A DNA stretch of 64,000 nt from Candidatus Omnitrophota bacterium (GCA_903884815.1 CAISGE010000015.1:22958-86957), one strand, 5' to 3'; shown: positions 31,238-61,537, counted from the first letter of the stretch. Numbers and translations: made by a program. Notes: generated by a model from the letters alone, not told the origin.

Positions 31238-31262
31238 ATTCCGGGAATTCAATTCCCGGAAT
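31238..31262. repeat. perfect palindrome ATTCCGGGAATT-C-AATTCCCGGAAT (copy 1 of 3), between convergent era and pfk
   Basis: Read directly. The same palindrome occurs at 51956 and 61508. Confidence 0.8.
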
Positions 31263-31274
31263 GAGTCGGGTGCT

Positions 31275-32468
31275 TTAAAGGGAAGCGAATTCCGGCAGGT
31301 TCTTTCCGAGAAGGGGAAGGGCGTATTCGGCGAAGGCGGGGCGGATCATGGTCTTGGCCGCGTCGAAATATTCTTCGGTGAGATAACGTTCCCGGTTGGG
31401 AATCTTTTCAAGCGGCACCGGTGCGTAGGTGATCGCGTACTTCTTTCCCGGTTTTCTTTTAAATCCCACCATGACTCGGGACATTCCCTCAAGCGCCCAC
31501 TTCACCGCGTAAGCTCCCGCCTGATAGGCTTCTTGCTGATCCGTTTTTGAAATATAGCCCATGGACATGCGCTGGATGGTGCCGGGTTTGTCAAAGCGGG
31601 CGCGAACGCCGAGATGTTTTTCCAGGATCGCGGCGAGGCGCGCGGCTGTCCCTTCCACGTATTTGTGGCCGAAGGGGTCGGTGGTGATGCCTCCGACTTT
31701 CCGTCCGATCCTGTTCCCGCCGTGGTCGCGTATGGTTTCCGAAATGACGATAATGCAGTAGCCGACGGATTGCAGGACAGCCTCGGTCCTTTTGAGGAAG
31801 GCGGTCTCGTTGAAAGGTACTTCCGGGATTAGCAGGATATGCGGCGCGTCCTCGGGGGATTTTTTAAGGAGCGCGGAGGCCGCGACGATCCATCCGGAGT
31901 TTCGGCCCATAAGCTCGATGATCTTGACGGGGTCCACGTTTTTCATGGCCTTGGTGTCCAGGGCCGCTTCCTGCGTGCTGATCGCCGCGAATCGAGCCAC
32001 CGAGCCGAAGCCGGGGCAGTGGTCGGTTTCCATTAAGTCATTGTCGATGGTCTTCGGGATATGGATCACGCGAAGCGGATAGTGGTCCTTTTCCGCTGCG
32101 TTCGCGATCTGGAGGCTGGTGTTGGCCGTGTCATTCCCGCCGATCAGAAACAGATAGCGGACATTGTTTTTTTTGAGCGCCAGGAGCACGCGCTTTTCAT
32201 CGCCCGGTTTCATTTTGTAGCGGGAGGAGCCGAGCGCGGCAGAGGGAGAATTCGCAACGGCCTTCATGAACTTTGAGGATTTGGCTTTGAGGTCAATGAA
32301 CGAGCCGCTCAGGATTCCTTCGATGCCGTTCCGGGAGCCGAGGATGCCCGTGATCTGGGGACAGGCACGGGCCGTTTCCACGACGCCGGCGAGGCTCTGA
32401 TTGATGACCGCCGTACATCCTCCCGATTGAGCAACGACCGCTTTTCCTTTAAGAGATGGATTTATCAT
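31275..32468 (-). CDS. pfk: 6-phosphofructokinase (PfkA family, likely PPi-dependent type)
   Basis: AVVAQSGGCTAVINQSL N-terminus, GGNDT, and PKTIDND catalytic motif. Confidence 0.85.
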   Translation of the reverse strand: MINPSLKGKAVVAQSGGCTAVINQSLAGVVETARACPQITGILGSRNGIEGILSGSFIDLKAKSSKFMKAVANSPSAALGSSRYKMKPGDEKRVLLALKKNNVRYLFLIGGNDTANTSLQIANAAEKDHYPLRVIHIPKTIDNDLMETDHCPGFGSVARFAAISTQEAALDTKAMKNVDPVKIIELMGRNSGWIVAASALLKKSPEDAPHILLIPEVPFNETAFLKRTEAVLQSVGYCIIVISETIRDHGGNRIGRKVGGITTDPFGHKYVEGTAARLAAILEKHLGVRARFDKPGTIQRMSMGYISKTDQQEAYQAGAYAVKWALEGMSRVMVGFKRKPGKKYAITYAPVPLEKIPNRERYLTEEYFDAAKTMIRPAFAEYALPLLGKNLPEFASL

Positions 32469-32528
32469 AAGATTTGGTTAGTATAACCCGAAGCAAAATC
32501 GAAGACTAGGATAAACCTTTGGGAGTAG

Positions 32529-33665
32529 ATGATGAAAACGAGCGTGATCCGAAAATCGGACGCGAAGATATGGCGGGCAAAGCTCACGGCGCCTTTCCGC
32601 ACGGCCAAGGGTCAGCATGACCTGCTTGAGAACGTCCTTTTCTCGATCGAACTTTCGGATGGCGTCCGGGGATACGGTGAGGCCGCGGTCGCGACGCATA
32701 TCACCGGGGAAACCGTTCCGGAAACGCTCCGGAATTTAAAGGAAGCTGCCCGTGCAATGCCGGGGCGGAGTCTCACGGGATTTCCGGAGATCGCTGAAGC
32801 GTTCCGGGAGAAGTTCGGGAAAAACAAATGCGCGCTAGCGGCGCTGGAGATGGCGCTTCTTGACGCGGCGGCTCGAGTCAAAAAGATGCCGCTTTGGCGG
32901 GTTTTCGGGAGTCGGCTCAGAACGCTTCGCACCGATATGACGGTGGTGCTCGGTTCTGTTCCGGAAGCGGAGGCAGCCGTTCAGGATATTTTGCGCCGGG
33001 GGATACGGTCGTTTAAAGTCAAGATCGGCCGGGATTTTGATTTGGACCTCAAGAGGGTTGTCGCGATCACGACGATCGCAAAACGCTTCCCGATTTATCT
33101 CGATGCGAATCAGGGGTTCACGGCGGTTCAGACGCTGAAATTCCTGAAAGAACTCACGAAGCTCAAGATCCAGCCGGCTTTGATTGAACAGCCGGTGCCG
33201 AAGGGCGATTGGGACGGTCTCAAGAAGGTGACGCGAGAAGGCGGAGTGCTGGTTTGCGCCGATGAAAGTGCGGGTTCCCTCGAGGATGCGAAGCGGATTA
33301 TCCTGGAGAAGGCTGCCGGAGCTATCAATATCAAATTTACGAAGACGGGCCTGCTTGAGGCCTATGAGATCGCGCATCTCGCGAAACGCCACGGGATCAA
33401 GTTGATGATCGGGACGATGATGGAAACGCCGCTCGCGGTCACGGCGGCGGCGCATCTGGCGGCGGGCCTCGGGGGTTTCGATTTTATCGATCTCGATGCG
33501 CCATTCTTTATGGCCGAGGCCGTGACACGTGGTCATTTCGTCACGCGCTCGGGCGTTTATGATCTTGGCAAGGTCAAAGCCGGGATCGGTGTTACTCCTC
33601 TGTACACACCGGGTGTGTGCATCGTGGGACACACCCGGTGTGTACAAGGGGCGAGCAAGACATGA
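32529..33665 (+). CDS. enolase-superfamily enzyme (MR/MLE; dipeptide epimerase / o-succinylbenzoate synthase-like)
   Basis: KVKIG...DANQG...EQP...ADES...MIGTMMET metal-ligand pattern. The 3' end reads through two tandem palindromes. Confidence 0.75.
   Translation: MMKTSVIRKSDAKIWRAKLTAPFRTAKGQHDLLENVLFSIELSDGVRGYGEAAVATHITGETVPETLRNLKEAARAMPGRSLTGFPEIAEAFREKFGKNKCALAALEMALLDAAARVKKMPLWRVFGSRLRTLRTDMTVVLGSVPEAEAAVQDILRRGIRSFKVKIGRDFDLDLKRVVAITTIAKRFPIYLDANQGFTAVQTLKFLKELTKLKIQPALIEQPVPKGDWDGLKKVTREGGVLVCADESAGSLEDAKRIILEKAAGAINIKFTKTGLLEAYEIAHLAKRHGIKLMIGTMMETPLAVTAAAHLAAGLGGFDFIDLDAPFFMAEAVTRGHFVTRSGVYDLGKVKAGIGVTPLYTPGVCIVGHTRCVQGASKT
33601..33648. repeat. two tandem ACACACCGGGTGTG-type palindromes forming a 17-bp-stem hairpin at the 3' end of the enolase-family gene
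   Basis: TGTACACACCGGGTGTGTGCATCGTGGGACACACCCGGTGTGTACAAGG. Confidence 0.65.
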
Positions 33666-34810
33666 TTCAGAATCCTTGGGCCATTCTCCTGGTTCTGATC
33701 CTGATCGAGGGGCTTATCCTTTTCCTTTCCGAGGGTACCCGGACGAAAAAGTTCTTCAAGTTCCCGCCGCCGCTTTTCTGGATCTATTTCCTGCCGATGA
33801 TTGTTTCGAGTCTTGGTCTTATCCCTCAGCAGCACGCCATTTATCCGAAGATCACCGCCGCCGTCCTTCCCGCGGGACTCATCCTACTTTTGATCGCGAC
33901 CGACTTTAAGGCGATTCTGAAGCTCGGGCGGCCGGCGCTTCTCATGATGTTCACGGGATCGGCGGGGATCATGATCGGCGCGCCGCTCGTGGTGGCGTTT
34001 TTCAAACCCTGGCTGCCCGCGGACGCGTGGTCGGGATTCGGGGCACTCTCGGCCTCCTGGATTGGCGGCAGCGCGAACATGGTGGCGGTGAGAGAAGCGA
34101 TCCACACGCCTGACGCCGTCTTTTTCCCGATGATCGTGGTGGATACCGTGGTGGCTTATTCGTGGATGGGCGTTTTGATCCTGCTGGAAGGTTTTCAGAA
34201 GAAATATGATACATGGAACCGTTCGGACTGCGGCATGGTGGAAGAACTTGCCCGGAAAACCGCGCTGGCGGAAGCGGGTTCCCAGAAATCTGACGCGCGA
34301 TACCTGCCGCTTATTGTGGCCGTGGCGTTCGGCGGAGCGTGGATCTCAAACGCTCTCGCGGGGATTCTCGGGGATGGGTCTTTTGCGTGGACGATCATTC
34401 TGGCCTCGACGATTGGAATCCTTCTTTCGTTCACACGCTTAAGGAAACTCGAACGCCACGGGGCTTCACGGATCGGTTATTTATTCCTTTTCCTGGTTCT
34501 GACCTCAATCGGTGCGCGGGCGAGTCTCTCGGGGATTTGGTCTGCTCCGGTACTGATCCTGGCTGGGGTGGTGCTGGTTCTCATTCACGCGTCATTCCTC
34601 TTTATCGTTTCTCGTGTCGCGCGTATCCCGCTTTGCCTCGCCGCGACCGCGAGCCAAGCGAATATCGGGGGCCCCGCCTCAGCGCCGATCGTCGCTGCGG
34701 CTTATGTGCCCGCGCTCGCGCCGGTCGGATTGCTTCTGGGGATACTCGGGAATGTGATGGGAACGTATCTGGGGCTTGTGACAAGTTGGCTTTGCAAGTG
34801 GGTTGGATGA
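33662..34810 (+). CDS. DUF819-like polytopic membrane protein
   Basis: 382 aa, ~10 TM segments. Start trimmed to MIQNPWAILL. Confidence 0.5.
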   Translation: MIQNPWAILLVLILIEGLILFLSEGTRTKKFFKFPPPLFWIYFLPMIVSSLGLIPQQHAIYPKITAAVLPAGLILLLIATDFKAILKLGRPALLMMFTGSAGIMIGAPLVVAFFKPWLPADAWSGFGALSASWIGGSANMVAVREAIHTPDAVFFPMIVVDTVVAYSWMGVLILLEGFQKKYDTWNRSDCGMVEELARKTALAEAGSQKSDARYLPLIVAVAFGGAWISNALAGILGDGSFAWTIILASTIGILLSFTRLRKLERHGASRIGYLFLFLVLTSIGARASLSGIWSAPVLILAGVVLVLIHASFLFIVSRVARIPLCLAATASQANIGGPASAPIVAAAYVPALAPVGLLLGILGNVMGTYLGLVTSWLCKWVG

Positions 34811-34813
34811 AAC

Positions 34814-34890
34814 CGCGGGCAAGGGGGAACGGGGAACGCCAAACGTTTTAGATATTGTTCACAGTTTGCCGTTGCCCTTCGTTTTTTATT
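34814..34890. repeat. HPE copy between convergent genes
   Basis: GCGGGCAAGG GGGAACG GGGAACG CCAAACG ... GTTTGCCGTTGCCCTTCG T6. Confidence 0.65.
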
Positions 34891-35659
34891 TCTTCTTCGA
34901 TTTCGTGTGAACCGCTTCCGCGATTATCTTGTGTATCGCCTGCCGGTTCCTTTGCTGGATTTCCCTCACGTTCTTCTGAGCTTTTTTGAGCGCGGCCTGT
35001 TTCTCTCTGCGCTCCTGAGGATCTTTGGCGGCTTTCAGATCTGTCTGAAGCTGGAGGATATCCCTTTTGAGGCTGCTTACGGTCATGGAGATCGTTCCGC
35101 CTTCCGTGATCACCGCGGTGGAGGCGGAAGTCATCGATGAGCCGACGCCTGCCGGAAGATCACCCGCTGTAAGATCTCCCAGAACCAGGGATACATTCTC
35201 GCTGATGTTGATCGTGACCCCTTCGGGGATGCGTAGGGTATCAGAAGCCAGGACGCCTTGTCCCTTGATCTCTAAAATGCCGTTCGCAGGGAGCTTGTCG
35301 AGAGCGCTCTGGATGTCGTCGTGGATATCGATGACAGTATGAGGAGAAAGGGTTTCAATTCCTTTTGGCCCGACCGTGGGGGTCGACTTTACGGCATATT
35401 CCATCCCAATGCTTGGGGTTTCAGCCTGCTCAGGTCTGACCATCTCCGTGCCTTCTATTGTGGAAGGTGAAAGAGGGGATTCCTGGGTATCATAATTGGA
35501 TGTAGACGGCCCCGCCTTCTTTTCCGCAGCCGGAACGGCTCGGAGCATTGAATCTCCCTTCGCGGGTGCGGGTGATGTATCCGCCGCCCAGCCGGTAAGG
35601 CTGAGGCTCGTCGAGAGCATTGCCGTCATTATCACAGCCAAAAAAACGATTTTTTTCAT
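34886..35659 (-). CDS. secreted hypothetical protein
   Basis: Signal peptide MKKIVFLAVIMTAMLSTSLSLTGWA. Lys-rich, coiled-coil-like C-terminus. Confidence 0.5.
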   Translation of the reverse strand: MKKIVFLAVIMTAMLSTSLSLTGWAADTSPAPAKGDSMLRAVPAAEKKAGPSTSNYDTQESPLSPSTIEGTEMVRPEQAETPSIGMEYAVKSTPTVGPKGIETLSPHTVIDIHDDIQSALDKLPANGILEIKGQGVLASDTLRIPEGVTINISENVSLVLGDLTAGDLPAGVGSSMTSASTAVITEGGTISMTVSSLKRDILQLQTDLKAAKDPQERREKQAALKKAQKNVREIQQRNRQAIHKIIAEAVHTKSKKK

Positions 35660-36094
35660 TCGAAACTCCTTTTACTTATATCTTATAAAGAATATCTTAA
35701 GTCAAGGCTAACCCATGGAACGGTTTATTGCAAGGCCTCGATGTGATTTTTTTGGGGGGGTATAGCTGAGATATACGCATTTTAAAGTGGTTTAAGGAGC
35801 GGGACTTTCGTGGATATGGGTCAGGTGCGTCATCTGGGCGCAACGGGGGGGCTGGCTTGAGATTCTTCCGCAAAATACGCTTCAAGATGACAACCGGTAC
35901 TTGGAAGGTTAAATTTTTGCAAGGCCACTGTCTGAACGAGAGGGAAGGAACGCGTGGCTGAATGAGAGGCCCCGGTATGAGACCTGGGAGCTATCGGGAT
36001 GCGGTCCTCTAAAACAACGCCCCGGAGTTTTCTTTAAAATCCGAAGGAAACGAAAACTCCACAAGAGTTCATAGAAATGTCGGCCGTCTGCTTA

Positions 36095-36592
36095 TTAATC
36101 AACCCGGCAGGGATTTGAAGCATTGTCGGTTGCAAGAAGCCCTAAACAAGAATAGGAGGGGGCATTAGAACCGACAACACTCAAAGACATGTAAGCATAC
36201 GTTAAAGGGTCGCTGCTCGGATATGACATGAATACGAGGGTATAGGCGGTCGACGTAGAAGTGAGAGAATAGTAAAAATCTCTCGATTGTTGCATGTCAC
36301 TGTTAGAGATTCCGGCGGGCTGGAAGTCACCGGAGATTTGACCAGCACTGTTCGAACTATAACTTATGAACGGCGGAAAATACCACGCGCTGGCGGTCGG
36401 AAACTGGCCTGTTCTGTCATATTTACCGTCCAGGGTTCGTCTCATGAGGCCGATCATTTGGAAGGCGGCCCCGATTTTGGCCCTTCCAATTTGGCTGGTC
36501 ATGCGCGGCACGATCACCACGGCGAGAGTGGTAATGATGACGAGCACGATCAATATCTCCACCAGAGTGAAACCCTTTTTCATGTCTCTCAT
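36095..36592 (-). CDS. type IV pilin-like protein, paralog 3
   Basis: MRDMKKG then FTLVEILIVLVIITTLAVVIVPRM. Track start 36610 is a TTG artefact; the ATG follows a GGGAGAG RBS. Confidence 0.75.
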   Translation of the reverse strand: MRDMKKGFTLVEILIVLVIITTLAVVIVPRMTSQIGRAKIGAAFQMIGLMRRTLDGKYDRTGQFPTASAWYFPPFISYSSNSAGQISGDFQPAGISNSDMQQSRDFYYSLTSTSTAYTLVFMSYPSSDPLTYAYMSLSVVGSNAPSYSCLGLLATDNASNPCRVD

Positions 36593-36761
36593 GTCTCTCT
36601 CCCTTTTCAAAAGAAGTCTCTCGGCCCGCTCAAATCATCGCCGTGGTCCCACTAGAACTGTAACACATATCCGCGGAATTGGGGGCGGCGACTGTCCTTA
36701 AATCAAGACGGGGAATCGGCGCTTTAATGTTCCAATACCCACGATTTGAAGCACGGCTTGA

Positions 36762-36989
36762 TCACCTCGCCAGGCGCTGTCTCTCTTTCAGGAGCATTTC
36801 CTTCATCTCCTGAGGCAATTTTTCAAAATCCGGAGGAAGGGGCGGCAGGCCTTTCGCGATCTCCTCGCGCGTTCTCGGGTCCCGGTGCTTCGCCGTGAAA
36901 TGCGGCATAAGCGCGAAGAGCAGCGCGCAAACGCAGACACCCAGGATCACCCATTTTTTTACGGAAACTCCCTCAAAGTTCTCAGTCAT
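36762..36989 (-). CDS. small single-TM membrane protein (75 aa) between pilin paralogs
   Basis: MTENFEGVSVKKWVILGVCVCALLFALMPHF. A degenerate copy lies after the next pilin. Confidence 0.4.
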   Translation of the reverse strand: MTENFEGVSVKKWVILGVCVCALLFALMPHFTAKHRDPRTREEIAKGLPPLPPDFEKLPQEMKEMLLKERQRLAR

Positions 36990-37005
36990 GACCGTCGTCT
37001 CCTGT

Positions 37006-37518
37006 TTAGCTGAGGTCGCATGGATTTGCAGAGCTCGAGTAAGTAACAAGCCCGCTACACATATAGGTGGTAACGATATTGCCGCTCGAAAAAACCGACC
37101 CGGCGCCCACGGAAGCATACGTTGAAGGGTCGTATGAGCCCGCGGTGGAGAAGGAGATCGAACTGCTTGAGGTGGTAGACGAAAAATTAAAGTTAAAATT
37201 TTTGATTTGCTGAACGTCGTAGTTCGACACCCCCAGGACTAGAAAGTTGCCCGAGCTGGAGCTGGCATGATCAATCCCGCCCGAATCCGTGTATGCCGGA
37301 AACCAAGTCGCGGCGCCGGAAGGTGGATAGTACCCATGCGTGCTGGCATAGTTTGCAAGGTTGCGTCTCATGATCCCGAATAGCTGCATGGGTTGCGCGA
37401 GTTTGGCCCTTGCGATTTGGCTGGTCATGTGCGGTACGATCATCGCTGCGAGAGTGGAAATGATGACGATCACGATCAATACCTCCACCAGAGTGAAACC
37501 CTTTTTCATGTCTCTCAT
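37006..37518 (-). CDS. type IV pilin-like protein, paralog 4
   Basis: MRDMKKG then FTLVEVLIVIVIISTLAAMIVPHM. Ser/Thr-rich C-terminal half. Confidence 0.75.
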   Translation of the reverse strand: MRDMKKGFTLVEVLIVIVIISTLAAMIVPHMTSQIARAKLAQPMQLFGIMRRNLANYASTHGYYPPSGAATWFPAYTDSGGIDHASSSSGNFLVLGVSNYDVQQIKNFNFNFSSTTSSSSISFSTAGSYDPSTYASVGAGSVFSSGNIVTTYMCSGLVTYSSSANPCDLS

Positions 37519-37689
37519 GTCTTTCTCCCTTTTCAAAAAAGGCTTTCCGCCTTCTCAAATCATCGTCGTGCTCCCATTAAAACTGTAACACATATCCGCG
37601 GAATTGGGGGCGTCGGCTCTCCTTAAATTAAGACGGAGGATCGGCGCTTTGATGCCCCCATTCCTATCAGCCGAAGCATTGCTTGATCG

Positions 37690-37800
37690 GTTTGCTACGT
37701 GGTGAACTGCGGCATAGGCGCGAAGACCAGCGTGCAAACGCAGACACCCAGGATTACCCATTTTTTCACGAAAACTCCCTCAAAGTTCTCAGGCTTGACC
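37690..37800 (-). pseudogene. decayed duplicate of the 75-aa small membrane protein gene (start ATG->AAG, premature stop)
   Basis: About 90% nucleotide identity with 36880..37000. Translates VKPENFEGVFVKKWVILGVCVCTLVFAPMPQFTT then stop. Confidence 0.45.
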
Positions 37801-37812
37801 GCCGTCTCCTGT

Positions 37813-38334
37813 TTAGATAATCTCGCAGCGAGAAGAATCATTTTTGGCGTAAGTAAAAAGCCCGCTACACATAGCGGAAGTGTTCATGCTACTGGTAATG
37901 GGGTTAAACCAAGTTGAGACGCCCATGTAAGCGTATGCTGGATCACCCCACGGGGCTACGGAATAGAAGGAGAGCCAGCTGGATGTGGAGGAACTGGAAA
38001 AAGAAAAGTTAAAATCGTTGATTTTCTGCATGTCGTTGTTGGAAACCCCCAGGACTAGAAAGTTGCCCGAGCTGGAGCTGCCATGATAAGTCCCGCCCGA
38101 ATCCGTGTACGCCGCAGAATAAGACGCGGAGCCGGAAGTCGGATAGTACCCATGCGCCGTGTAATAGGTTTCAAGGTTGCGTTTCATGATGCCGAATAGC
38201 TGTGTGGGTTCCGCGAGTTTGGCCTTTGCGATTTGGCCGGTCATGCGCGGCACGATCGCTGCGGCGAGAATGGCAATGATGACGAGCACGACCAATACCT
38301 CCACAAGCGTGAAACCCTTCTTCATGTTTTTCAT
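37813..38334 (-). CDS. type IV pilin-like protein, paralog 5
   Basis: MKNMKKG then FTLVEVLVVLVIIAILAAAIVPRM. Track start 38667 is an over-extension; ATG at 38334 follows a GGAG RBS. Confidence 0.75.
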   Translation of the reverse strand: MKNMKKGFTLVEVLVVLVIIAILAAAIVPRMTGQIAKAKLAEPTQLFGIMKRNLETYYTAHGYYPTSGSASYSAAYTDSGGTYHGSSSSGNFLVLGVSNNDMQKINDFNFSFSSSSTSSWLSFYSVAPWGDPAYAYMGVSTWFNPITSSMNTSAMCSGLFTYAKNDSSRCEII

Positions 38335-38617
38335 AGCACTTCTCCTTTCAAAAGAAGACCAGACTGCTCTTCCGATCATCATCGTCAACCACCCGCAATA
38401 ACTATAGCACATATCCGGAGAATGGGGGGGGAGGCGGGTAACGGAATCAAGGGGGTTATTCGGCTCCCCCGGGCCTCGATCCTTCCAGTACCGGACACTC
38501 TCCGGAGTCCCTGGCACTGGAACTTCTTCGGAAGACGGGGTATTGCGAAGGGGGTTATTCCGCATTTCCCGTTTCCCGTTCACCCTTCGTTTCGATTGTG
38601 CTACAATCCCGCTCCTT

Positions 38618-39238
38618 ATGAAGAAAAAACATCCCGCAATCAAAGCCGTGATTTTCGACCTCGGCAACGTGCTTGTGAATTACGACGTCGAAAAGGCGGC
38701 GAAGCGGTTTTCGGCCGCGTCCGGGCTTTCGACTCGTGAGATATGGAAGCGTTTCTTCCTTTCCCGGTTCGAGCAGGCCTTTACGCGTGGCGATATTTCG
38801 ACCCGCGAGTTCCATCGGAGCGCCTGCGAAACGCTCGGCGTTTCCATTCCGCTGAAGGTCTTCAGCCATTACTGGAACGATATCTTCTGGGAGAATCCGG
38901 GGATGGAGAGGCTGCTCGTCCGGATCAAGAAGCATTACCCGCTTTATCTGATCTCAAATACGAACGCTCTTCACTATAACCACATCAAGAAGCATTTTAA
39001 ACTGCTCCGCCATTTCGACCGGAAATTCCCATCGCATGAAGTCGGTGCGCGCAAGCCCGATCTTCGGATCTACCGACGTGTCCTCAAAAAAATCGGTCTC
39101 CGCCCCGAAGAAACCGTTTTTATCGACGACATGAAAAGCTTTATCCTCGGCGCCCGCAAGGTTGGCATGCACGCCATCCGCTTCAAGGGCCGTCTGGCCC
39201 TCCTCAAGTCCCTTCGCAAGCTCGGCATACGTTTTTAA
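38618..39238 (+). CDS. HAD-superfamily hydrolase (subfamily IA)
   Basis: Motif I VIFDLGNV. Motif II LISNT. C-terminal FIDD. Confidence 0.8.
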   Translation: MKKKHPAIKAVIFDLGNVLVNYDVEKAAKRFSAASGLSTREIWKRFFLSRFEQAFTRGDISTREFHRSACETLGVSIPLKVFSHYWNDIFWENPGMERLLVRIKKHYPLYLISNTNALHYNHIKKHFKLLRHFDRKFPSHEVGARKPDLRIYRRVLKKIGLRPEETVFIDDMKSFILGARKVGMHAIRFKGRLALLKSLRKLGIRF

Positions 39239-39334
39239 TCTCTCTCTTCTTTGATAGGGAAAGGTTTCGATCAGAATATAAAATATAATGATAATAATAT
39301 TGATTATAAATGAATTTTGTGGTATTCTTTCGAA

Positions 39335-39859
39335 ATGGAGAGACAGCCGCTGACAACCCAGAAAATAGCCGCCTCGATTTATCTGATCCGGGGATGCAAA
39401 GTTATGTTGGATTCCGACCTGGCGGTCCTCTACGGTGTAGAGACGAAATATCTTAAAAGGCAGGTGAAGCGGAATCTGGAGAGATTTCCTCCAGATTTTT
39501 TGTATCGCTTGACTAAAAAAGAAGTGGCGGCTCTAAGGTGCCAAATTGGCACCTTAGACAGTCCTGGGCGTGGTCAATACAGCAAGTATCTTCCTTATGC
39601 CTTCACGGAGCATGGGATTCTGATGCTCTCCAGCGTCTTGAGTAGCCAGAAGGCCATTCAGGTCAATATCGCGATCATGAGGGTGTTCGCGCGGATCCGG
39701 CAGGTGCTGATTGAAAATAAAGATCTGGCACTACACATGGAAAGGCTGGAGCGCCATGTCGAGCGGCACGGAAAAGATATCCGCTCTCTGTTTGATTTTG
39801 TGGAACGCATCCTCGCGATCGACGAGAAGCCCAAGGGGCCCATTGGTTTTCACCCTTAG
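39335..39859 (+). CDS. ORF6N-domain protein (KilA-N-related, phage/antirepressor-associated domain)
   Basis: IRGCKVMLDSDLAVLYGVETKYLKRQVKRNLERFPPDF matches the ORF6N domain. Preceded by an AT-rich ~80-nt stretch. Confidence 0.65.
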   Translation: MERQPLTTQKIAASIYLIRGCKVMLDSDLAVLYGVETKYLKRQVKRNLERFPPDFLYRLTKKEVAALRCQIGTLDSPGRGQYSKYLPYAFTEHGILMLSSVLSSQKAIQVNIAIMRVFARIRQVLIENKDLALHMERLERHVERHGKDIRSLFDFVERILAIDEKPKGPIGFHP

Positions 39860-39874
39860 CTGCAGGGAATCCAA

Positions 39875-40720: not shown

Positions 40721-40851
40721 AATCTTCGGGGGTCACGTCTATACTTGACAGAAATAAAAGACCGTGGAGAATACCCGCTTCTCAGATCTCGTTTTTGGCG
40801 TCAAATGCACTCCTGTTCTTTTATGTTCCATTTTCTCAGAGGGAAAAATAA

Positions 40852-41526: not shown

Positions 41527-41533
41527 ATCAGTT

Positions 41534-42510: not shown

Positions 42511-42609
42511 AAAAATACGTTGGAGTATTCCTTGCTTGCCTCCCCCGGGACCCGGGGGAGGCAAGCTTGTCTTTGAAGGTTCATCACCGTTATCGATAAG
42601 GAACTCGAG

Positions 42610-46308: not shown

Positions 46309-46354
46309 AAAAAAGGGGGACAGGCATTAAGTGACTGCTTGTCCCCTTTTTTTT
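46309..46354. terminator. bidirectional rho-independent terminator (GGGGACAGGCA family; inverted copy of the 28069 hairpin)
   Basis: A7 GGGGGACAGGCATTAAGTGACTGCTTGTCCCC T8. Its loop is the reverse complement of the 28069 loop. Abuts the efp stop. Confidence 0.75.
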
Positions 46355-51727: not shown

Positions 51728-51955
51728 CAGCCGAGCGTGAATTAACAGAACTCCGTCGGGGAAGTTCTGCGCAGCGTCGCACAGAGTTGATTTATAAGCA
51801 CCCTCAAACGATGGTCCCAAACAGAGAGCGCCCAGAGCGGCTGCCAGCCCCATGGCAAGCGTCCCCCAGGACGTTACTCGCGCCCGGGGCTCTTGCCACC
51901 GGCGAACTCAAGGCCTTCCAATCCGAAATCCTCCGCTTCTCCGGTGCACCCCGCC

Positions 51956-51982
51956 AATTCCGGGAATTGAATTCCCGGAATT
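51956..51982. repeat. perfect palindrome AATTCCGGGAATTGAATTCCCGGAATT (copy 2 of 3)
   Basis: Read directly. Flanked by CCAAT/ATTGG. Confidence 0.8.
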
Positions 51983-52053
51983 GATTGGTGGAGGGGATGG
52001 GGTTATAATGCGCGCGGATTCAAAACCACATTCATCCACGAAAGGAAAATATC

Positions 52054-52323
52054 ATGCGTAAACTTGTGATCGCGTTTTTTTCTTTAACGCTTATGGCGGG
52101 CAGTACGATGGCCTATGCCGCCGTTGATTGTACGAAAGATAACCCGGTCGATCAGGCGGGGGATTGGTTCGCGACGCTCGGCAAGAAGGGGATCGAGAAG
52201 GATCAGGTCCTGTCCGCGCGCAAAGGCGATCGCGTCATCGCCTGTACCAAGCGGGAAGCGGATAAGGCCATGAAGGCCGCTGGAAAAGCCGGCAATGGCA
52301 TGAAAAAGAAGCTCGGGTTCTAA
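52054..52323 (+). CDS. small secreted protein (89 aa)
   Basis: Signal peptide MRKLVIAFFSLTLMAGSTMAYA. Two Cys. Lys-rich. Confidence 0.45.
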   Translation: MRKLVIAFFSLTLMAGSTMAYAAVDCTKDNPVDQAGDWFATLGKKGIEKDQVLSARKGDRVIACTKREADKAMKAAGKAGNGMKKKLGF

Positions 52324-52415
52324 AGCCGAGGATCTCGTCTCCGATAAGTCCTTAAAAATGGCCTGGTCCAAAAGACCGGGCCATTTTTGTGAGCGGCGCC
52401 TGTCAGGCGGAAGTG

Positions 52416-55145: not shown

Positions 55146-55258
55146 GAAAGTCCGTTTCCCTATGTTGAGAGATTCGAATTTTATCATGAGGCAAAGATCC
55201 GCGGGGGAAAACAATTTTTTCAGAATAAACCTCTCGATGGGGTAGAATCCATGGGCGC

Positions 55259-55287
55259 GGAACTTTTTGAGAGATGTTGAGGTCTAA
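55259..55287 (+). promoter_or_regulatory. ECF-type promoter GGAACTT-N17-TCTAA upstream of the ECF sigma gene (autoregulatory)
   Basis: Read directly. ATG 25 nt downstream. Confidence 0.6.
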
Positions 55288-55311
55288 GTTTTCAAGATCG
55301 GGAGAATATCC

Positions 55312-55959
55312 ATGCAAGAGATCGAGCGGGAACTGATCGTCAGGGCGGGGGAGGGGGACGCGGGAGCATTCCGGGAGATTTACCGGCGGGCGGCTGGGTA
55401 TGTCTACACCTTGGCGTACCGGGTCGTGAATACCAAGCCTGACGCGGAGGAAGTGACGCAAGATGTGTTCCTGAAGATACACCGGAGTCTTGGTTCTTTC
55501 AAGTTTGAGGCAGCGTTCAAAACCTGGCTTTACCGGATTACGCTCAATACGGCGCTGAATCACGCGAAGAAAAGAAGTCGCGTGACGCAACGCGAAGTCG
55601 AAGAAGTGTTTGAGGATCCGGCTACCGTGACCCAAGCCGATGCCAGGAAAGGTCTCGAAGCGGATGATACGGGGGTGCAATTGAAGGCTCTGCTTGATCA
55701 GCTGAATCCCGACCAAAGGGCTTGCATTGTTTCGCGGGAGATCGAAGGGATGGATTATCAGGGGATTGCCCGAAGTCTTGGGATCAACATCAATACGGTC
55801 CGTTCGAGGCTCAAAAGAGCCCGCGAGACCTTGATGGCCCTCGGGCAGACCCAATTCTCCATCGAAAAAAATGAAGGTCAATTGGGTCAGCCCTGGCAAC
55901 CTTCAGTGAAAAGAAGAGAGAAGCCAGGACAAAAGGAGGTAGTGAGTCATGGACTGTAA
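55312..55959 (+). CDS. ECF (RpoE-like) sigma-70 family sigma factor
   Basis: Region 2 DVTQDVFLKIHRSLGSF...WLYRITLN. Region 4 HTH. 215 aa. Confidence 0.85.
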   Translation: MQEIERELIVRAGEGDAGAFREIYRRAAGYVYTLAYRVVNTKPDAEEVTQDVFLKIHRSLGSFKFEAAFKTWLYRITLNTALNHAKKRSRVTQREVEEVFEDPATVTQADARKGLEADDTGVQLKALLDQLNPDQRACIVSREIEGMDYQGIARSLGININTVRSRLKRARETLMALGQTQFSIEKNEGQLGQPWQPSVKRREKPGQKEVVSHGL

Positions 55960-56446
55960 AAAATTGAAGGACCGTCTTTTGACGGATTATCTCGACAAGG
56001 AGCTTGGAGCGATTGAGCGCGCGAGTGTGGACGGACACCTGGCCGGATGCTCGGCGTGCCGGGGGTTCTTTCGGAATCTTCAAGAGAGTGCTGTTGCGCC
56101 GTTTAAAGGGGTTCCAGAGATCCAACCGGATGAGATCGTTTGGCGCCGCATCCAAGAACAGATTGCGGCGGAAAGTGCGCATGCTTCGGGTGGATTTTGG
56201 GGACTTGTGGATCTTTTAGTATCCCGCTTTCCGTTACCCGTTCCCATGATGCGTGTGGCTTTCGTTACAGCGCTTGTTCTGGTGACTGTGGTGCTCGCGA
56301 GGTGGCCGTCCGGGTCTATACATCCGGCTTATGCCTACGTGGAAGAGCAGATGACGTTCATGAACGAATTGGGTGCCGGCAATACCGAGCTCATGAACGG
56401 AGAGCTGAAGGATTACGAGACTACTTATGAAGAAATAGGCCGTTAA
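55949..56446 (+). CDS. anti-sigma factor (ZAS-type, single TM)
   Basis: HLAGCSACRGFF zinc-binding anti-sigma motif. TM at ~aa 85-105. 11-nt overlap with the sigma gene. Confidence 0.7.
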   Translation: MDCKKLKDRLLTDYLDKELGAIERASVDGHLAGCSACRGFFRNLQESAVAPFKGVPEIQPDEIVWRRIQEQIAAESAHASGGFWGLVDLLVSRFPLPVPMMRVAFVTALVLVTVVLARWPSGSIHPAYAYVEEQMTFMNELGAGNTELMNGELKDYETTYEEIGR

Positions 56447-56447
56447 A

Positions 56448-56476
56448 GGAACTTTTGAATTTAATCTGGGGTCTAA
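56448..56476 (+). promoter_or_regulatory. second ECF-type promoter GGAACTT-N17-TCTAA upstream of the Spy/CpxP-like gene
   Basis: Identical -35/-10 and spacer length as at 55259. Confidence 0.6.
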
Positions 56477-56500
56477 CCAAGTAAAAGGGAGGGAATCAAA

Positions 56501-57016
56501 ATGGAAAACAAACTCACGAAGCTCATAGCGGTTTTAGCAGTTCTTGGGTTGATGGCGACGGGGCCTTTGGCCTATGCCGGATCCGAGGGAGAAGGTCAGA
56601 CGAGTGGAAAAAGCTGGGGACACGGTAAGGGGCAGAGCCCGGATTTTTTCAAGGAATTGAATCTGACCGCGGAGCAGAAGGAAAAGTTGAAGGCCCAGCG
56701 CGAAGGGAAAAAAGATGAGCGTAAGGCACTGCGCGAGCAGATGAAGACGAAAATGCAGGCGCTTCACGAAGCCATCTCCAAGCCGGCGACGAAACGCGCA
56801 GATGTGAACGGGCTTGTCGGCGAGGTGAACGCGATCAAGGGGCAGATGTTCGCCCAGAAGATCGACGGTATTTTCGCGATGAAAGAGGTTTTGACGCCCG
56901 AGCAGTTCGCGAAAATGCAGGCGCAGCACAAGGCTCGGATGGACAAGATGCAAGACGGGAAGGGCAGGCATCAAGGGGGATCTGAAGGCGAGGAACCCGA
57001 GATGGAGAAAAACTAG
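56501..57016 (+). CDS. periplasmic Spy/CpxP-family (LTXXQ motif) protein
   Basis: Signal peptide. Two LTxxQ motifs (LTAEQKEKL, LTPEQFAKM). Confidence 0.7.
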   Translation: MENKLTKLIAVLAVLGLMATGPLAYAGSEGEGQTSGKSWGHGKGQSPDFFKELNLTAEQKEKLKAQREGKKDERKALREQMKTKMQALHEAISKPATKRADVNGLVGEVNAIKGQMFAQKIDGIFAMKEVLTPEQFAKMQAQHKARMDKMQDGKGRHQGGSEGEEPEMEKN

Positions 57017-57030
57017 ATCCGGATCTTGCG

Positions 57031-57067
57031 TTTGACACCCGGCGGCGAGCATGGCCCCGGGTGTCAA
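57031..57067 (+). terminator. hairpin TTGACACCCGG-N14-CCGGGTGTCAA after the Spy-like gene
   Basis: Perfect 11-bp inverted repeat. Related to the ACACCGGGTGT palindromes. Confidence 0.5.
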
Positions 57068-57137
57068 CCCGTGTTTTAGGATGCTTTCTGAAGGGCTTTC
57101 CCGGTGAATTCCAAACAAATCTTTTTTGTCATGCCTC

Positions 57138-58829
57138 ATGGAGAAACCCGTGTTCAAACTTAAGCCTGTCCCTGAGGACCTGCTGTTTCTTTCGTTGATC
57201 TTGGGTGCCGCGGTCCTCATGGCGTGGCCGTTGTTTAGCAATAGCCTCCTCGATGCTCACGATTCGATCGCTTATTATTCAAAAGCTGTCGCCGTCCATC
57301 AGTCCTGGCGAGAGGGCGATTTCCTGGCACGCTGGTCCCCCCATATCAACCAGGGGTACGGCTACCCCAACCTCAATTTCTACTCGCCTCTTTTTTTCTA
57401 CATTGCGGCAAGCTGCATGTTCTTTTTTCCTTTGGTTCTGGGTTTCCACGTTGCGATCTTTGTCTGCCTTTTCCTTTCAGGCGTTTCGATGTATTTCTTT
57501 GCCCGGGAGCTATGGGGCAGACAGGGAGGGTTGTTGTCTTCGGTCGCGTATCTTTTTGCGCCCTATCATGCGTTAGATATTTATATGCGCGCTGCAGTGG
57601 GAGAGGCGACAGCCTTTATTTTTTTTCCGCTGATCTTGTTGGCTTTTTACCGTCTTTCCCGGGGCGTCGTGCTGCGCGATATCCTGATCGGGGTGTTCGG
57701 CGTTGCAGGGCTTTTTCTTTCTCATCCGCTGGCCACTTTCATTTTTCTCCCGTGGGCCGTCGGTTACGGCCTTTTCCTTTGGGCGGCGGCGGGGCGTTTT
57801 GAGGTACGGAAGCTGATGGCGATGGGTTTTGTTTTTGGAGGAGCTCTTTGGGTGACTGCCTATTTTGTACTTCCCTCCATGCTTGAGCAGCCATTCGTTC
57901 ATATTGAAAGATTTCTTAACATTGATTATCGGGAAAATTTTCTTCGTCTGGGGCATGTCTTCTATGCTCCGTGGAAGTTCCGGGGAGCAAGTGCTCGGGA
58001 AGCAATCGTTCCCGGCGAGGTCCATTTATTGGCGGTGTTGGTTCTTCTCCTGTTCTGGAGGAGGATCGTCCTGACAGTGAAAGGAGCCGGACGGCAGATG
58101 CTTTTTTTCCTTGCACTTTTTATCCTGGCGATCTTTTTTACCTTACCCGTGTCTGCCCCGTGCTGGAGGATCATCCCGAAGCTGGCTTATGTGCAATTCC
58201 CATGGCGATTTATGATGCTGGCGGCGCTCTCGCTCTCTTTTTTGTCAGGAGGTGTTATTTGCTTGTTCTCGCCTCGCTTGCGCAAGGTCGCCTTGTTTCT
58301 TGGCTGCATTCTGTTCATTTGTTTCAATCTTTCTTACTGCAGGGTTTTTTATTTGAAGATCCATGAAACGAGATCCACGGAGGCGTATGTCAGGACATTG
58401 AAATCTCATGAATCGGGTGGATTTGTACCGAAGTGGGTTGAAAATGGCAGGATCCTGTCTCCCGCTAAAAAAGTGCAGGTCACCCGCGGGGAGGCGCAGG
58501 TCGTGGAGGAGGGGGGCAGCCCTCTTGACAGACGCTTTCATGTGACCGCCGCGACGCTCGCAACCTTGTGTTTTTATTCCTATTATTTCCCGGGGTGGGA
58601 GGTTTTTGTGAATGGCAGGGCCACAGAGATCTATCCGTCGAATCCTTTTGGCTTGATCCTTTTCAAGGTGCCCCCTGGAGATTCCTCCGTGAGGGTGCAT
58701 TTTGGGACCACTCCTGTCAGGCAATGGGGCGAGATCCTCTCGCTATCTTCGGTGCTCTTCCTGGCGCTGATCATGATCTTCCGGAAAAGAGTCGATGCCT
58801 GGCTGGCCGGCGGCGCCCCTCCTATGTAA
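57138..58829 (+). CDS. polytopic membrane protein, GT-C-like (unknown function)
   Basis: About 13 TM segments, a C-terminal periplasmic beta-domain, then a final TM. Track start 57126 is TTG; ATG at 57138. Confidence 0.5.
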   Translation: MEKPVFKLKPVPEDLLFLSLILGAAVLMAWPLFSNSLLDAHDSIAYYSKAVAVHQSWREGDFLARWSPHINQGYGYPNLNFYSPLFFYIAASCMFFFPLVLGFHVAIFVCLFLSGVSMYFFARELWGRQGGLLSSVAYLFAPYHALDIYMRAAVGEATAFIFFPLILLAFYRLSRGVVLRDILIGVFGVAGLFLSHPLATFIFLPWAVGYGLFLWAAAGRFEVRKLMAMGFVFGGALWVTAYFVLPSMLEQPFVHIERFLNIDYRENFLRLGHVFYAPWKFRGASAREAIVPGEVHLLAVLVLLLFWRRIVLTVKGAGRQMLFFLALFILAIFFTLPVSAPCWRIIPKLAYVQFPWRFMMLAALSLSFLSGGVICLFSPRLRKVALFLGCILFICFNLSYCRVFYLKIHETRSTEAYVRTLKSHESGGFVPKWVENGRILSPAKKVQVTRGEAQVVEEGGSPLDRRFHVTAATLATLCFYSYYFPGWEVFVNGRATEIYPSNPFGLILFKVPPGDSSVRVHFGTTPVRQWGEILSLSSVLFLALIMIFRKRVDAWLAGGAPPM

Positions 58830-58842
58830 GCGCGTTCGTAAC

Positions 58843-58872
58843 GCCCGCTTCTCATTGTGGGCGTTTTTTGTT
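58843..58872 (+). terminator. rho-independent terminator AACGCCCGC-loop-GTGGGCGTT-T6
   Basis: Read directly, 14 nt after the stop. Confidence 0.7.
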
Positions 58873-58886
58873 ATGATACGCCCCCT

Positions 58887-59669
58887 ATGCAGACCTTATC
58901 CCTCAGACAGAACAATATTTTGCGTGGTGTCATCGAAACGCATATCGAAACGACCCAACCCGTGGGGTCCCGTTCGATCGCCGAGAAATATGCCACCTCC
59001 TTTTCTCCCGCGACCATCCGGAACGAAATGGGAGCCCTGGAAGAAATGGGTTATCTTTCACATCCCCACACTTCGTCCGGCCGCCTTCCCACAGACTGCG
59101 GCTATCGTTATTATCTGGATCATACGCCTTTCGAAGATCATTCCGAGGAGTCCCTCAGCCGTCTCAAAAAAGAGCTCGTCCCCGCGGCAAGCCCTCAAAT
59201 GTTGGAGGAGTTCCTCGACCATGTTTCTCTGCTTTTGTCCTCTTTATCCCAGGAAGTTGGATTGACCCTGATGCCCGGCGCGGAAGCGAAGACGTCTTCA
59301 AAGTCGGGCAGGACCCGGCTTGCTTTACAGGGACTCCCTTATATCCTTGAAAAGCCTGAATTCCAGGATGTTCGGAAAGTCCGGAATTTGCTGGGCGTGT
59401 TCGAGGAAAAAGTGACGCTTACCCAATGGGTGCTGACGCACGTTGATTCCGAGCATGTTTCGGTCTCGGTAGGCCACGAGCACTCGCAAGAGGCTTTGGA
59501 AGATTGCTCGATCGTGGCGGCGCGTTATGACGCCGGGGAAAACCGCCGCGGCGTGATCGCGATCCTGGGGCCCAAGCGCATGGCGTACCGGCAGATCATC
59601 CCGCTGGTTTCGCGCATGGCAGTTGTGGTAGGCCATATGTTTGAACGAATGGAGCCCGAAATCTTATGA
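58887..59669 (+). CDS. hrcA: heat-inducible transcription repressor HrcA (short form)
   Basis: N-terminal wHTH LRGVIETHIETTQPVGSRSI. Followed by grpE and dnaJ. Confidence 0.75.
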   Translation: MQTLSLRQNNILRGVIETHIETTQPVGSRSIAEKYATSFSPATIRNEMGALEEMGYLSHPHTSSGRLPTDCGYRYYLDHTPFEDHSEESLSRLKKELVPAASPQMLEEFLDHVSLLLSSLSQEVGLTLMPGAEAKTSSKSGRTRLALQGLPYILEKPEFQDVRKVRNLLGVFEEKVTLTQWVLTHVDSEHVSVSVGHEHSQEALEDCSIVAARYDAGENRRGVIAILGPKRMAYRQIIPLVSRMAVVVGHMFERMEPEIL

Positions 59670-60325
59670 GTCATCACCACAAGAAAAATCATCACGAAAA
59701 ACAGGACGAAGGGAAAAAGATGGCGGAGGACGGCAAGGTCGAGGATGCCGCGGCTTCGCAAAATGGCGGAAAAGTAGAAGTTCCGGCGCAGGAATACGAG
59801 GCGCTTAAGAAGAAGGTCGAAGAGCTTGAAGGCTTGCGAGAAAAATTCTTACTTGCGGCGGCGGATTTCGAGAACGCGAAGAAACGGAACGCGCGCGACA
59901 AAGAAGATTTTATCAAGTTCAGCCAGGAACGGATCCTGAGGGAACTGATCCCCGTTCTGGATAATTTTGAAAGGGCGGTCGGTCACGCGACGACGGCTTC
60001 CGCGAGCGCGACCTCGTATGAGGCGCTGCTGCAGAATTTGAAGACGCTGCTTTCGGGGGTAGAGAGAGTGCAGAAGCAGTTTACCGATGCTCTCAAGTTG
60101 CACGGTCTCAAAAGGGTCGAGACTGCCGGGCAGATGTTCAACCCGCATTTCCACGAAGTGGTTGCCCATGTGCCTGAGGAAGGACCGGAAGATCAGATCG
60201 TCGATGAACTTGAACCGGGCTACACCCTTCATGACCGTCTCCTCCGGGCCGCCAAGGTCCGCGTTCGTGTATCGCCCCAGCCTCAAACGCCCGCTTCCGA
60301 GGAGAAGCAGGAAGAAATCACTTAA
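59666..60325 (+). CDS. grpE: nucleotide exchange factor GrpE
   Basis: FENAKKRNARDKED...ILRELIPVLDNFERA...HEVVAHVP GrpE blocks. Confidence 0.85.
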   Translation: MSHHHKKNHHEKQDEGKKMAEDGKVEDAAASQNGGKVEVPAQEYEALKKKVEELEGLREKFLLAAADFENAKKRNARDKEDFIKFSQERILRELIPVLDNFERAVGHATTASASATSYEALLQNLKTLLSGVERVQKQFTDALKLHGLKRVETAGQMFNPHFHEVVAHVPEEGPEDQIVDELEPGYTLHDRLLRAAKVRVRVSPQPQTPASEEKQEEIT

Positions 60326-60328
60326 AAC

Positions 60329-60396
60329 GCGCTCAACGTGCAACGGGCAACGCACAAAAAAAGAATGTTGCGCGCAGATCGTTGAGCGTTGCGCGA
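60329..60396. repeat. HPE copy between grpE and dnaJ (where dnaK usually sits)
   Basis: GCGCTCAACG TGCAACG GGCAACG CAC ... GTTGCGCGCAGATCGTTGAGCGTTGCGCG. Confidence 0.75.
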
Positions 60397-60409
60397 TTCC
60401 GAAGGAATT

Positions 60410-61501
60410 ATGGCAAAACGCGATTACTATGAAGTGTTGGGTGTGACCAAGGCGTCGGACAGCGAGACGATCAAGAAAAGCTACCGCAAGCTTGCCTTGC
60501 AGCATCATCCTGACCGCAATCCCGGAAATCACGCCGCGGAAGAGAAATTTAAGGAAGCCGCGGAAGCCTACGCCGTCCTCAGCGATCCGGACAAGCGAGC
60601 CCGCTACGACCAGTACGGGCACAGCCTGGGAGGTCAGGGCTTCTCCGGTTTCGAAGGTTTCGAGGATGCCTTTGGCGGCTTCAGCGATATCTTCGGCGAT
60701 CTTTTTGAGGGTTTTTTCGGAGGCGATGGCGGAAGACGCCGCGGTCGCGGGCAGCGGGGTGCCGATCTGGAATACACGGTGGAGCTCGAGCTCGCCGAAG
60801 TTCTCACGGGAAAGACCTTTGATCTGGAAATTCCGCGCAAGGAAACCTGCATTGAATGCCAGGGCACGGGCGCGGAAAAAGGTTCTCGGAAAACGACATG
60901 CTCCGATTGCGGGGGGCGCGGCGAGGTTCGGGTTTCCCAAGGGTTTTTCACGATCCGCAGGACCTGCCCGAGATGCCACGGGGAGGGAGAGTCGATCGAG
61001 AAACCCTGCCAGACTTGTCGCGGAGAAGGTCGCGTCCGGAAAACACGCAAGCTTCAGGTGAAGATCCCAGCCGGGATCGAGCACGGTTCCAAACTTCGTG
61101 TGACGGGAGAGGGCGAGGCGGGACAGGGCGGCGGATCACGCGGCGATCTTTACATCCCGGTGTTGATCAAAAAGAATAAGACCTTCGAGCGGCAGGGGCA
61201 TGACATTTATTGTGAGGTGCTGATCCCGTACACGGTGGCGGTGTTGGGCGGCGAAGTGGAAGTTCCGACACTGACCGGGAAAACGCGGCTTGAGGTTTCA
61301 AGTGGAACTCCGGCCGGCAAGGTGCTTAAGATCAAGGGCGAGGGTGTTCCGGCCTTCGGCATGGAGGAGCGCCGCGGGGACCAATATGTGAAAGTGGATA
61401 TTGAGATCCCGACCAAACCCAGCAAGATCGAGCGCGAGCTCCTGGAGAAATTGGCAGCCGAGCGCAAAGAAAAGATCAGCGGCAAAAAAAGTTTCTTTTA
61501 A
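60410..61501 (+). CDS. dnaJ: chaperone DnaJ
   Basis: J-domain with HPD ([12 protein letters not shown]). G/F region. Four CxxCxGxG repeats. Confidence 0.9.
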
Positions 61502-61507
61502 CCCGAT

Positions 61508-61537
61508 CAATTCCGGGAATTGAATTCCCGGAATTAG
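61508..61537. repeat. perfect palindrome CAATTCCGGGAATTGAATTCCCGGAATTAG (copy 3 of 3) after the dnaJ stop
   Basis: Read directly. Confidence 0.8.

Follow-up and report, generated by a model that had tools for sequence, protein, structure and literature searches.

Identical palindromes of palindromes at three gene ends of a Candidatus Omnitrophota genome, possibly a REP-like dispersed repeat

The DNA stretch analysed here (hereinafter, the window) consists of 64,000 nt of a metagenome-assembled genome (MAG; GCA_903884815.1, CAISGE010000015.1:22958-86957) whose source contigs come from stratified-lake metagenomes and whose host is a member of Candidatus Omnitrophota, the name carried by homologues of its DnaJ and Era proteins at 84-85% identity. 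Three copies of a perfect palindrome, ATTCCGGGAATT[S]AATTCCCGGAAT, are found in this window, each located at the end of a gene, as originally predicted from the sequence alone, and the predicted contexts are borne out by Pfam annotation: the junction of the convergent genes era and pfk, the region downstream of a 1394-aa open reading frame (ORF), and the junction between dnaJ and a gene for a 4HBT thioesterase. In all three cases, the palindrome is the core of a stem-loop of about 44 nt (the core is given in parentheses):

31228-31271, copy 1 stem-loop, ACCCG-CAAC-(AATTCCGGGAATT C AATTCCCGGAATg)-AGT-CGGGT
51947-51990, copy 2 stem-loop, CACC-CCGC-(C AATTCCGGGAATT G AATTCCCGGAATT G)-ATT-GGTG
61501-61543, copy 3 stem-loop, ACCC-GATC-(AATTCCGGGAATT G AATTCCCGGAATT)-AGTA-GGGT

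Copy 1 occupies the entire 46-nt spacer between the convergent stop codons of era (31226-31228) and pfk (31275-31277, minus strand). For copy 2, the distance from the stop codon of the 1394-aa ORF is 229 nt, and the 3' end of the copy runs into the -35 hexamer TTGATT (51981-51986), which, together with a 17-nt spacer and TATAAT (52004-52009), makes up the best promoter-like site between 45 and 64 kb (10 of the 12 positions), located upstream of a conserved gene for an 89-aa secreted protein (52054-52323). Copy 3 begins within the dnaJ stop codon (61499-61501), on its last base; this codon closes the hrcA-grpE-dnaJ operon (58857-61501). The copy ends 15 nt before the ATG of the thioesterase gene (61559) and is followed by a Shine-Dalgarno-like run, GGGGGAGGA. 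One of the three spacers is convergent and two are co-directional, with no divergent spacers represented.

The three copies are the only occurrences of the palindrome in the window, with none expected by chance (100 dinucleotide-preserving shuffles yielded no matches). The search for ATTCCGGGAATTNAATTCCCGGAAT without mismatches retrieves positions 31238-31262 (central base C), 51957-51981 (G) and 61510-61534 (G), so that, in full agreement with the original prediction, the arms are identical and the variation is limited to the central C or G. No additional matches to this pattern with up to three mismatches exist in the window, no degenerate copies with up to eight mismatches were detected in the window and 10 kb of further DNA of the same genome, and a covariance model based on all five known copies of the element and run over 243 kb identified no degenerate copies in the window. 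A weak match of this model in a related locus (L024) is a chance one, falling within a coding sequence that is conserved at the protein level.

The perfect palindrome spans 25 nt in copy 1, where the outermost base is changed from T to G, 29 nt in copy 2 (51955-51983) and 27 nt in copy 3 (61509-61535); the length initially assigned to copy 1 was correct, whereas copy 2 turned out to be longer and copy 3 shorter than first delimited (61508-61537). The pair CCAAT...ATTGG that had been proposed to flank copy 2 is not a clean extension because the perfect arm continues for a single base (C/G) and then gives way to a shifted CACC/GGTG helix. A short G+C helix of this kind lies 4-5 nt outside the core in all three copies (ACCCG/CGGGT, CACC/GGTG and ACCC/GGGT, respectively). 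The copies are, in this sense, parts of longer sequences, the stem-loops of about 44 nt listed above, but these are still short repeats rather than diverged remnants of longer elements, the finding that was thought to speak against the prediction. Instead of the two EcoRI-like half sites noticed originally, each copy contains one full GAATTC site. Inspection of the three copies revealed no target-site duplication, a feature that had been suggested as a check, around the core (27 nt) or the whole stem-loop (44 nt), and direct reading of the three sites confirmed that no T-run follows any copy on either strand. No Rfam family matches the window at or above the gathering threshold. Copy 1 is identical in three independent assemblies (ENA, NCBI and a MEGAHIT assembly); therefore, the element is real, and an assembly artefact is ruled out.

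The palindrome has an additional level of symmetry. Each 13-nt arm, AATTCC-S-GGAATT, is a palindrome in its own right, and the 27-mer can equally be described as two tandem 13-bp palindromes with a 14-bp period. Neither CCSGG nor GAATTC is under-represented in the window, which gives no hint of restriction directed at the sites of the element.

When folded as RNA, the 59-nt windows containing the element reach -24 to -29 kcal/mol (z -3 to -4.7), and the stem-loops with the outer clamp, on either strand, range from -22 to -29 kcal/mol. Copy 1 adopts the same fold on the two strands (-24.3 and -24.2 kcal/mol, z -4.7 and -4.1), and copies 2 and 3 fold at -29 and -26.8 kcal/mol, respectively. The core alone accounts for -15.6 kcal/mol, whereas the alternative structure with two small hairpins comes to +0.1 and a single unit to 0 kcal/mol, so that the symmetry at the level of the arms has no role in folding.

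The element is missing from close relatives. In about 150 kb of syntenic DNA from related genomes (loci L010-L024), with protein identity of 75-90% (DnaJ, 76-89%; Era, 87-90%), the AATTCCSGGAATT unit does not occur. Downstream of era, the relatives carry Zip and prfC (L020), prfC (L022) or a panE-like gene (L024), whereas in the window genome, the element alone separates era from pfk. The prfC gene, which encodes RF3, lies between era and pfk in L020 (10921-13302, along with the Zip transporter gene) and in L022 (10909-12673), and neither gene is present at 31229-31274 of the window. The 89-aa gene has different upstream neighbours in L016 and L018, and the orthologous site lacks the palindrome. 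The dnaJ and thioesterase genes overlap by 1-4 nt in L012, L016, L018 and one contig known by gene coordinates alone; among the relatives, a spacer between these genes is found only in L010/L011, where its 37 nt include a small hairpin, CCC..CCGATTT-CAG-GAATCGG..GGG. This hairpin is matched by the covariance model (E-value 4e-4 to 6e-3) and aligns as a single-unit version of the element within the same outer CCC/GGG clamp, which implies that the dnaJ/thioesterase spacer predates the split of the two species; either copy 3 of the window genome was homogenised with the other copies, or the version in L010 decayed. The copies of the element are identical and occupy non-homologous sites, marking places where gene order or spacing departs from the relatives.

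A sister family, CACACC-S-GGTGTG, has the same architecture as the AATTCC element but differs from it at three of the six half-site positions. The window contains three sites of this family:

33601-33646, sister pair, TGTA-CACACCGGGTGTG-T-N10-A-CACACCCGGTGTG-TACA, with 18-nt perfect arms
19940-19952, single sister unit CACACCGGGTGTG in the 15-nt thiC-ispG(gcpE) spacer, with the flanks TAA-CCCCGGA ... GACAAGGG
24197-24209, single sister unit CACACCGGGTGTG, 12 nt past the stop codon of the EamA gene (24221-24223, minus strand)

The sister pair starts exactly at the ancestral position of the MR_MLE stop codon, with the MR_MLE ORF now reading through for 19 additional codons, and ends just short of the start of the DUF819 gene (33662); L022 has an extra cellulase gene at the same junction. 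The single unit at 24197 adjoins an N_methyl gene that is absent from L020 and L022.

Outside the window, matches are few. Exact-pattern scans with TTCCSGGAATTNAATTCCSGGAA covered 185,579 species genomes, JGI metagenome contigs and viral contigs, the source genome being present in none of these collections, and recovered just three sequences, an Omnitrophota MAG (L002), a JGI contig (L004) and a variant from Oscillospiraceae (L001, same as L003), with no match among the viral contigs. The sites in L002, namely one doublet, a single unit and a partial unit, are all located downstream of rpoN. Its 600-nt spacer 3' of rpoN (5840-6000) is crowded with two doublets (AACACC and AATTCC), a single AATTCC unit and a partial unit, an arrangement that resembles the clusters known as bacterial interspersed mosaic elements (BIMEs). 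The AACACC doublet consists of two AACACC-S-GGTGTT units with a 1-nt spacer, next to the AATTCC units, and accordingly, the window genome and L002 share two families built on a CCSGG centre. In L004, the doublet is found 16 nt past the stop codon of a SulP gene and has a fully paired outer extension, ACCCTTCT/AGAAGGG(C); both central bases are G, so that the overall palindrome is broken and both units are intact. The Oscillospiraceae variant, in which the arms are not unit palindromes, may be coincidental, given that about 0.14 chance matches are expected. A BLAST search of the element against plasmids and phages produced chance-level matches only, and a literature search for the element sequence and for Omnitrophota palindromes found nothing relevant.

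The best account of the three copies, with about an even chance of being right, is a dispersed palindromic repeat that is specific to the lineage and behaves like a repetitive extragenic palindrome (REP), serving as a transcript-end or intercistronic hairpin. This reading fits the combination of identity at non-homologous sites, absence from the relatives, location in gene-end spacers, lack of target-site duplication, the presence of the outer clamp and the existence of parallel families. The REPs are short (20-40 nt), species-specific extragenic palindromes that are located after genes, show no target-site duplication, comprise several families per genome, often come in inverted pairs and form hairpins at the 3' ends of mRNAs (PMC2817692, PMC3733652, PMC8266576). 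The number of REP copies usually exceeds 100 per genome (PMC2817692), and a GTAG or CGTC tetranucleotide tags one end (PMC3733652). The element resembles the REP, BIME and REPIN group, which is mobilised by RAYT (TnpA-REP) transposases of the Y1 type, encoded by genes that are themselves flanked by REPs, in position, size, hairpin formation, lineage specificity and lack of duplication: it is a short palindrome (25-29 nt) that forms a stem-loop, and it is confined to extragenic gene-end locations. The differences are that REPs are imperfect and tagged with GTAG or CGTC, whereas the core of the element is perfect and untagged, with arms that are themselves palindromes, and that the 13-nt unit is shorter than a REP. 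Membership in the REP class proper is not established, considering the absence of the tag and a copy number that is known from only about 74 kb.

Under the REP-like interpretation, the unit of spread would be the stem-loop of about 44 nt, comprising the 27-nt core of two 13-nt palindromic units and the outer ACCC/GGGT clamp, which would reach further gene-end spacers through copying at the level of DNA, with no duplication left behind. Such copying could be the work of an enzyme of the RAYT/IS200 or Ssn type, specific for hairpins and acting in trans, or could come about through conversion of one copy by another. Upon transcription, the element would form a symmetrical 3' hairpin; because the U-run is missing, this hairpin probably does not release RNA polymerase unaided, and it would rather pause the polymerase, block 3' exonucleases or act as a processing site. 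As a result, the era and pfk transcripts would have defined ends, the promoter of the 89-aa gene would be shielded from read-through, and dnaJ would be uncoupled from the thioesterase gene, to which it is translationally coupled in the relatives. If this is the case, a repeat family of the REP kind would be added to the candidate phylum Omnitrophota, for which we found no such elements described. The copies would mark recent structural change, namely the loss of prfC after era and the uncoupling of dnaJ and the thioesterase gene, and could help to tell strains apart and to probe operon re-punctuation in uncultured bacteria. The build of the element, a palindrome of palindromes, is unusual, and the symmetry of the units hints at a protein partner, but the element class itself is fairly ordinary. 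On present evidence, the finding is a modest one: the copies most likely represent a new family within a known kind of element, and nothing points to a new kind of system.

Several observations weigh against the REP-like interpretation. The count of three copies applies to about 74 kb of the source genome and is thus no proof of a high copy number genome-wide; L002, the only other Omnitrophota MAG with a match, yielded the doublet once in an exact-match scan of its contigs. The flanks differ between the copies: GTAG adjoins copy 3 alone, on its 3' side, and CGTC adjoins none. No RAYT, Ssn or transposase gene was detected among the Pfam annotations of the window and the adjacent loci or by a motif scan. 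A function as a hairpin leaves the palindromy of the arms unexplained; a single unit has a folding energy of about 0 kcal/mol as RNA, and yet single units persist (5882 in L002; 19940 and 24197 in the window). Finally, different genomes have the same 27-nt core, in keeping with a protein partner that recognises a specific sequence.

These last points lead to the main alternative, which we regard as possible but doubtful, namely that the copies are tandem duplex binding sites for a dimeric DNA-binding protein, be it a regulator, a nucleoid-associated protein or a chromosome-organising one. One dimer would bind each 13-bp palindrome and a tetramer would form on two sites spaced by 14 bp, with the 27-nt palindrome arising as a by-product of their juxtaposition. 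Such sites would explain why the 13-nt unit is palindromic alone and adds nothing to RNA folding, why single units exist in both families, and why the core is the same in different genomes. The 14-bp centre-to-centre spacing recurs in the window, in both families of L002 and in L004, and the L004 doublet, with G at both centres, keeps its two units while the overall palindrome is broken. In addition, copy 2 abuts the -35 hexamer of the strong promoter-like site, and five of the six unit sites in the window are no more than 130 nt away from the start of a downstream gene. Against this stand the location of copy 1 between convergent stop codons, away from any promoter, with copy 2 the only one to touch a promoter; identity at 27 of 27 positions, which is rare among the sites of a regulator; the lack of the site at the orthologous promoter of the 89-aa gene (L016, L018) and at the dnaJ/thioesterase junction of the relatives; the outer ACCC/GGGT complementarity, which is superfluous in a duplex site; and the divergence between the two families at half of the half-site positions, with no candidate protein identified. 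The operator proposed in the original prediction is weakened by this evidence, in particular by the convergent spacer, the complete identity and the empty sites in the relatives, which are at odds with what is expected of a transcription-factor operator, and what it retains is the palindromic 13-bp unit and the contact of copy 2 with the -35 box.

Precedents for such a design exist. In tandem palindromic operators that bind pairs of dimers, such as the C-protein boxes of restriction-modification systems and QacR IR1, adjacent short palindromes are located about 14-15 bp apart. As in the element, two adjacent short palindromes together resemble a single long one, but these operators lie at one promoter, next to the regulator gene, and are conserved with it, whereas the element is dispersed, has one copy in a convergent spacer and is absent in the relatives. 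With copy 3 at the end of the hrcA-grpE-dnaJ operon, the HrcA operator CIRCE was considered as well; the CIRCE pattern (TTAGCACTC-N9-GAGTGCTAA, up to three mismatches) has no match anywhere in the 64 kb, and the sequence of the palindrome is unrelated to it.

A dedicated enzyme is another explanation to be weighed, albeit an unlikely one. The 13-bp CCSGG-centred palindromes of both families (AATTCC-S-GGAATT and CACACC-S-GGTGTG) would be the recognition site of an undescribed Omnitrophota nuclease or recombinase that inserts or converts units at stop codons and promotes gene loss and gain. This proposal would account for the copies at synteny breakpoints, the self-palindromic arms and the unchanged 27-mer in unrelated Omnitrophota genomes.

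Also improbable is the reading of the copies as recombination sites or scars of rearrangement. The palindromes would then be recognised by a site-specific recombinase or nuclease, or be hotspots at which copies recombine with each other, and would have given rise to the local gains and losses of genes, with each copy marking a junction left by such an event. Every AATTCC copy, and two of the three sister sites, fall where gene order or content is not that of close relatives: prfC is missing after era, the dnaJ/thioesterase spacer is new, the 89-aa gene has another upstream neighbour, MR_MLE is not followed by the cellulase gene, the sister pair starting exactly at the old stop codon, and an extra N_methyl gene lies beside 24197. 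Inverted arms of 13 bp recall the half-sites of recombinases. However, a 1-nt centre leaves no room for the crossover regions of 2 bp or 6-8 bp of the known serine and tyrosine recombinases, and no recombinase gene is found nearby. Furthermore, any lineage-specific insertion is a difference by definition, about one-third of the spacers in the region are breakpoints anyway, and other breakpoints lack the palindrome, for instance, that at the missing CHASE2-GGDEF gene near 27.0-27.2 kb.

It appears equally improbable that the copies are intrinsic terminators without U-runs that share their sequence, for example, through conversion among terminators, and involve neither mobility nor a protein partner. 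The prediction of a transcript-end structure is supported in part, in that the element is a strong hairpin in transcribed spacers after stop codons. In favour of plain terminators, each copy is the sole stable hairpin downstream of a gene that has no canonical terminator. Similar to a Rho-independent terminator, it is a G+C-containing hairpin that can directly follow a stop codon and, being symmetrical, could serve both genes at the convergent junction; the canonical terminators of this genome also form a repeated sequence family (GGGGACAGGCA...). However, the genome's own terminators have the architecture of an A-run, a hairpin and a T-run, with clear A/T runs, whereas the element has no T-run on either side and none of the copies appears on the terminator scan list, so that it does not belong to the Rho-independent class. 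Canonical terminators occur at four of the seven convergent junctions of the genome and elsewhere, and likewise in the relatives, which indicates that the palindrome is a different device rather than the usual terminator. Besides, copy 3 is located inside an operon that is coupled in the relatives, copy 2 lies as far as 229 nt past the stop codon, and the palindromy of the units is left unexplained. The repeated canonical terminators are bidirectional and consist of an A-run, GGGGACAGGCA, a 9-nt loop, TGCCTGTCCCC and a T-run (23479-23523, 28069-28109 and 46309-46352); this repeat family also occurs in a related species (L010, 4850-4878).

Of the miniature insertion element suggested in the original prediction, the dispersed, lineage-specific repeat remains, but miniature inverted-repeat transposable elements as such, which carry terminal inverted repeats around an internal sequence, are rejected because the target-site duplication is missing and 27-44 nt is far too short compared with the typical 50-500 bp.

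The closest published parallel for hairpin repeats recognised by a dedicated enzyme comes from Neisseria, where the dRS3/NTS repeats and the Ssn-related motifs (SRMs) are cut as single-stranded DNA by the GIY-YIG nucleases Ssn (cd10448), the ssn gene being flanked by the repeats (PMC11893778). These repeats, which the element resembles, are dispersed hairpins with ATTCCC...GGGAAT arms that gather near variable genes, are implicated in rearrangement and owe their recognition to both sequence and structure (PMC11893778). Unlike the Neisseria repeats, the element has no CGTC head and no orientation, and its loop is 1-3 nt rather than 3-8 nt long; the published SRM expression (PMC11893778), HGTCWYN(0-2)YYVSBRHN(0-5)WNVSBRGN(0-2)RNCYNB, fails at all three copies, so that this identity is rejected. 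A crude motif scan, which is a weak test, found no plausible ORF for a small GIY...YIG nuclease. The sole match to the SRM expression in the window (5441-5474, minus strand) is located in the nuoH-nuoJ spacer and is distinct from the AATTCC copies.

Hairpins tagged with CGTC or TGTC, such as CGTCATCCCCGCCGCTTGAAACGGGGATAAC, all of them close to the Neisseria NTS repeat (PMC11893778), are present in the window (5441-5474), in L002 (2760-2789) and in L020 (near 16419, minus strand). The first two match the published SRM, and the one in L020 was recognised by sequence similarity. One SRM match in the window is not above chance (0.5 expected); similar sequences recur in three Omnitrophota genomes.

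Other inverted repeats of the window are of different kinds. Hairpins made of CAACG/CGTTG pentamer runs occupy the nuoC-nuoD (8386-8455), grpE-dnaJ (60330-60388) and thioesterase-gpsA (61999-62060) spacers. In the relatives, the grpE-dnaJ spacer contains hairpins at the same place made of other pentamers (CCACG/CGTGG for L010 and L018, still different ones for L012 and L014), which implies that the structure is conserved with covarying arms; the comparison suggests that this hairpin may be a functional intercistronic RNA in the heat-shock operon. Three inverted repeats sharing TTGGGAC...GCCCCAAT (17166-17356) are located upstream of, and overlap the start of, the gene for a NirDL/AsnC-type regulator (17301-18485).

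Two further perfect odd palindromes lie within coding sequences, TCTAAGGTGCCAA-A-TTGGCACCTTAGA (39532-39558) inside the gene for an ORF6N-domain protein and GCTTGCCTCCCCCGGG-A-CCCGGGGGAGGCAAGC (42534-42566) within an unannotated 284-aa ORF. The window has five palindromes with a short centre and perfect arms of 12 nt or more, and in all five the centre is exactly 1 nt. Among the short motifs, GATC is over-represented about 3-fold across the window (707 observed vs 241 expected), and CTAG is under-represented about 9-fold (27 observed vs 242 expected).

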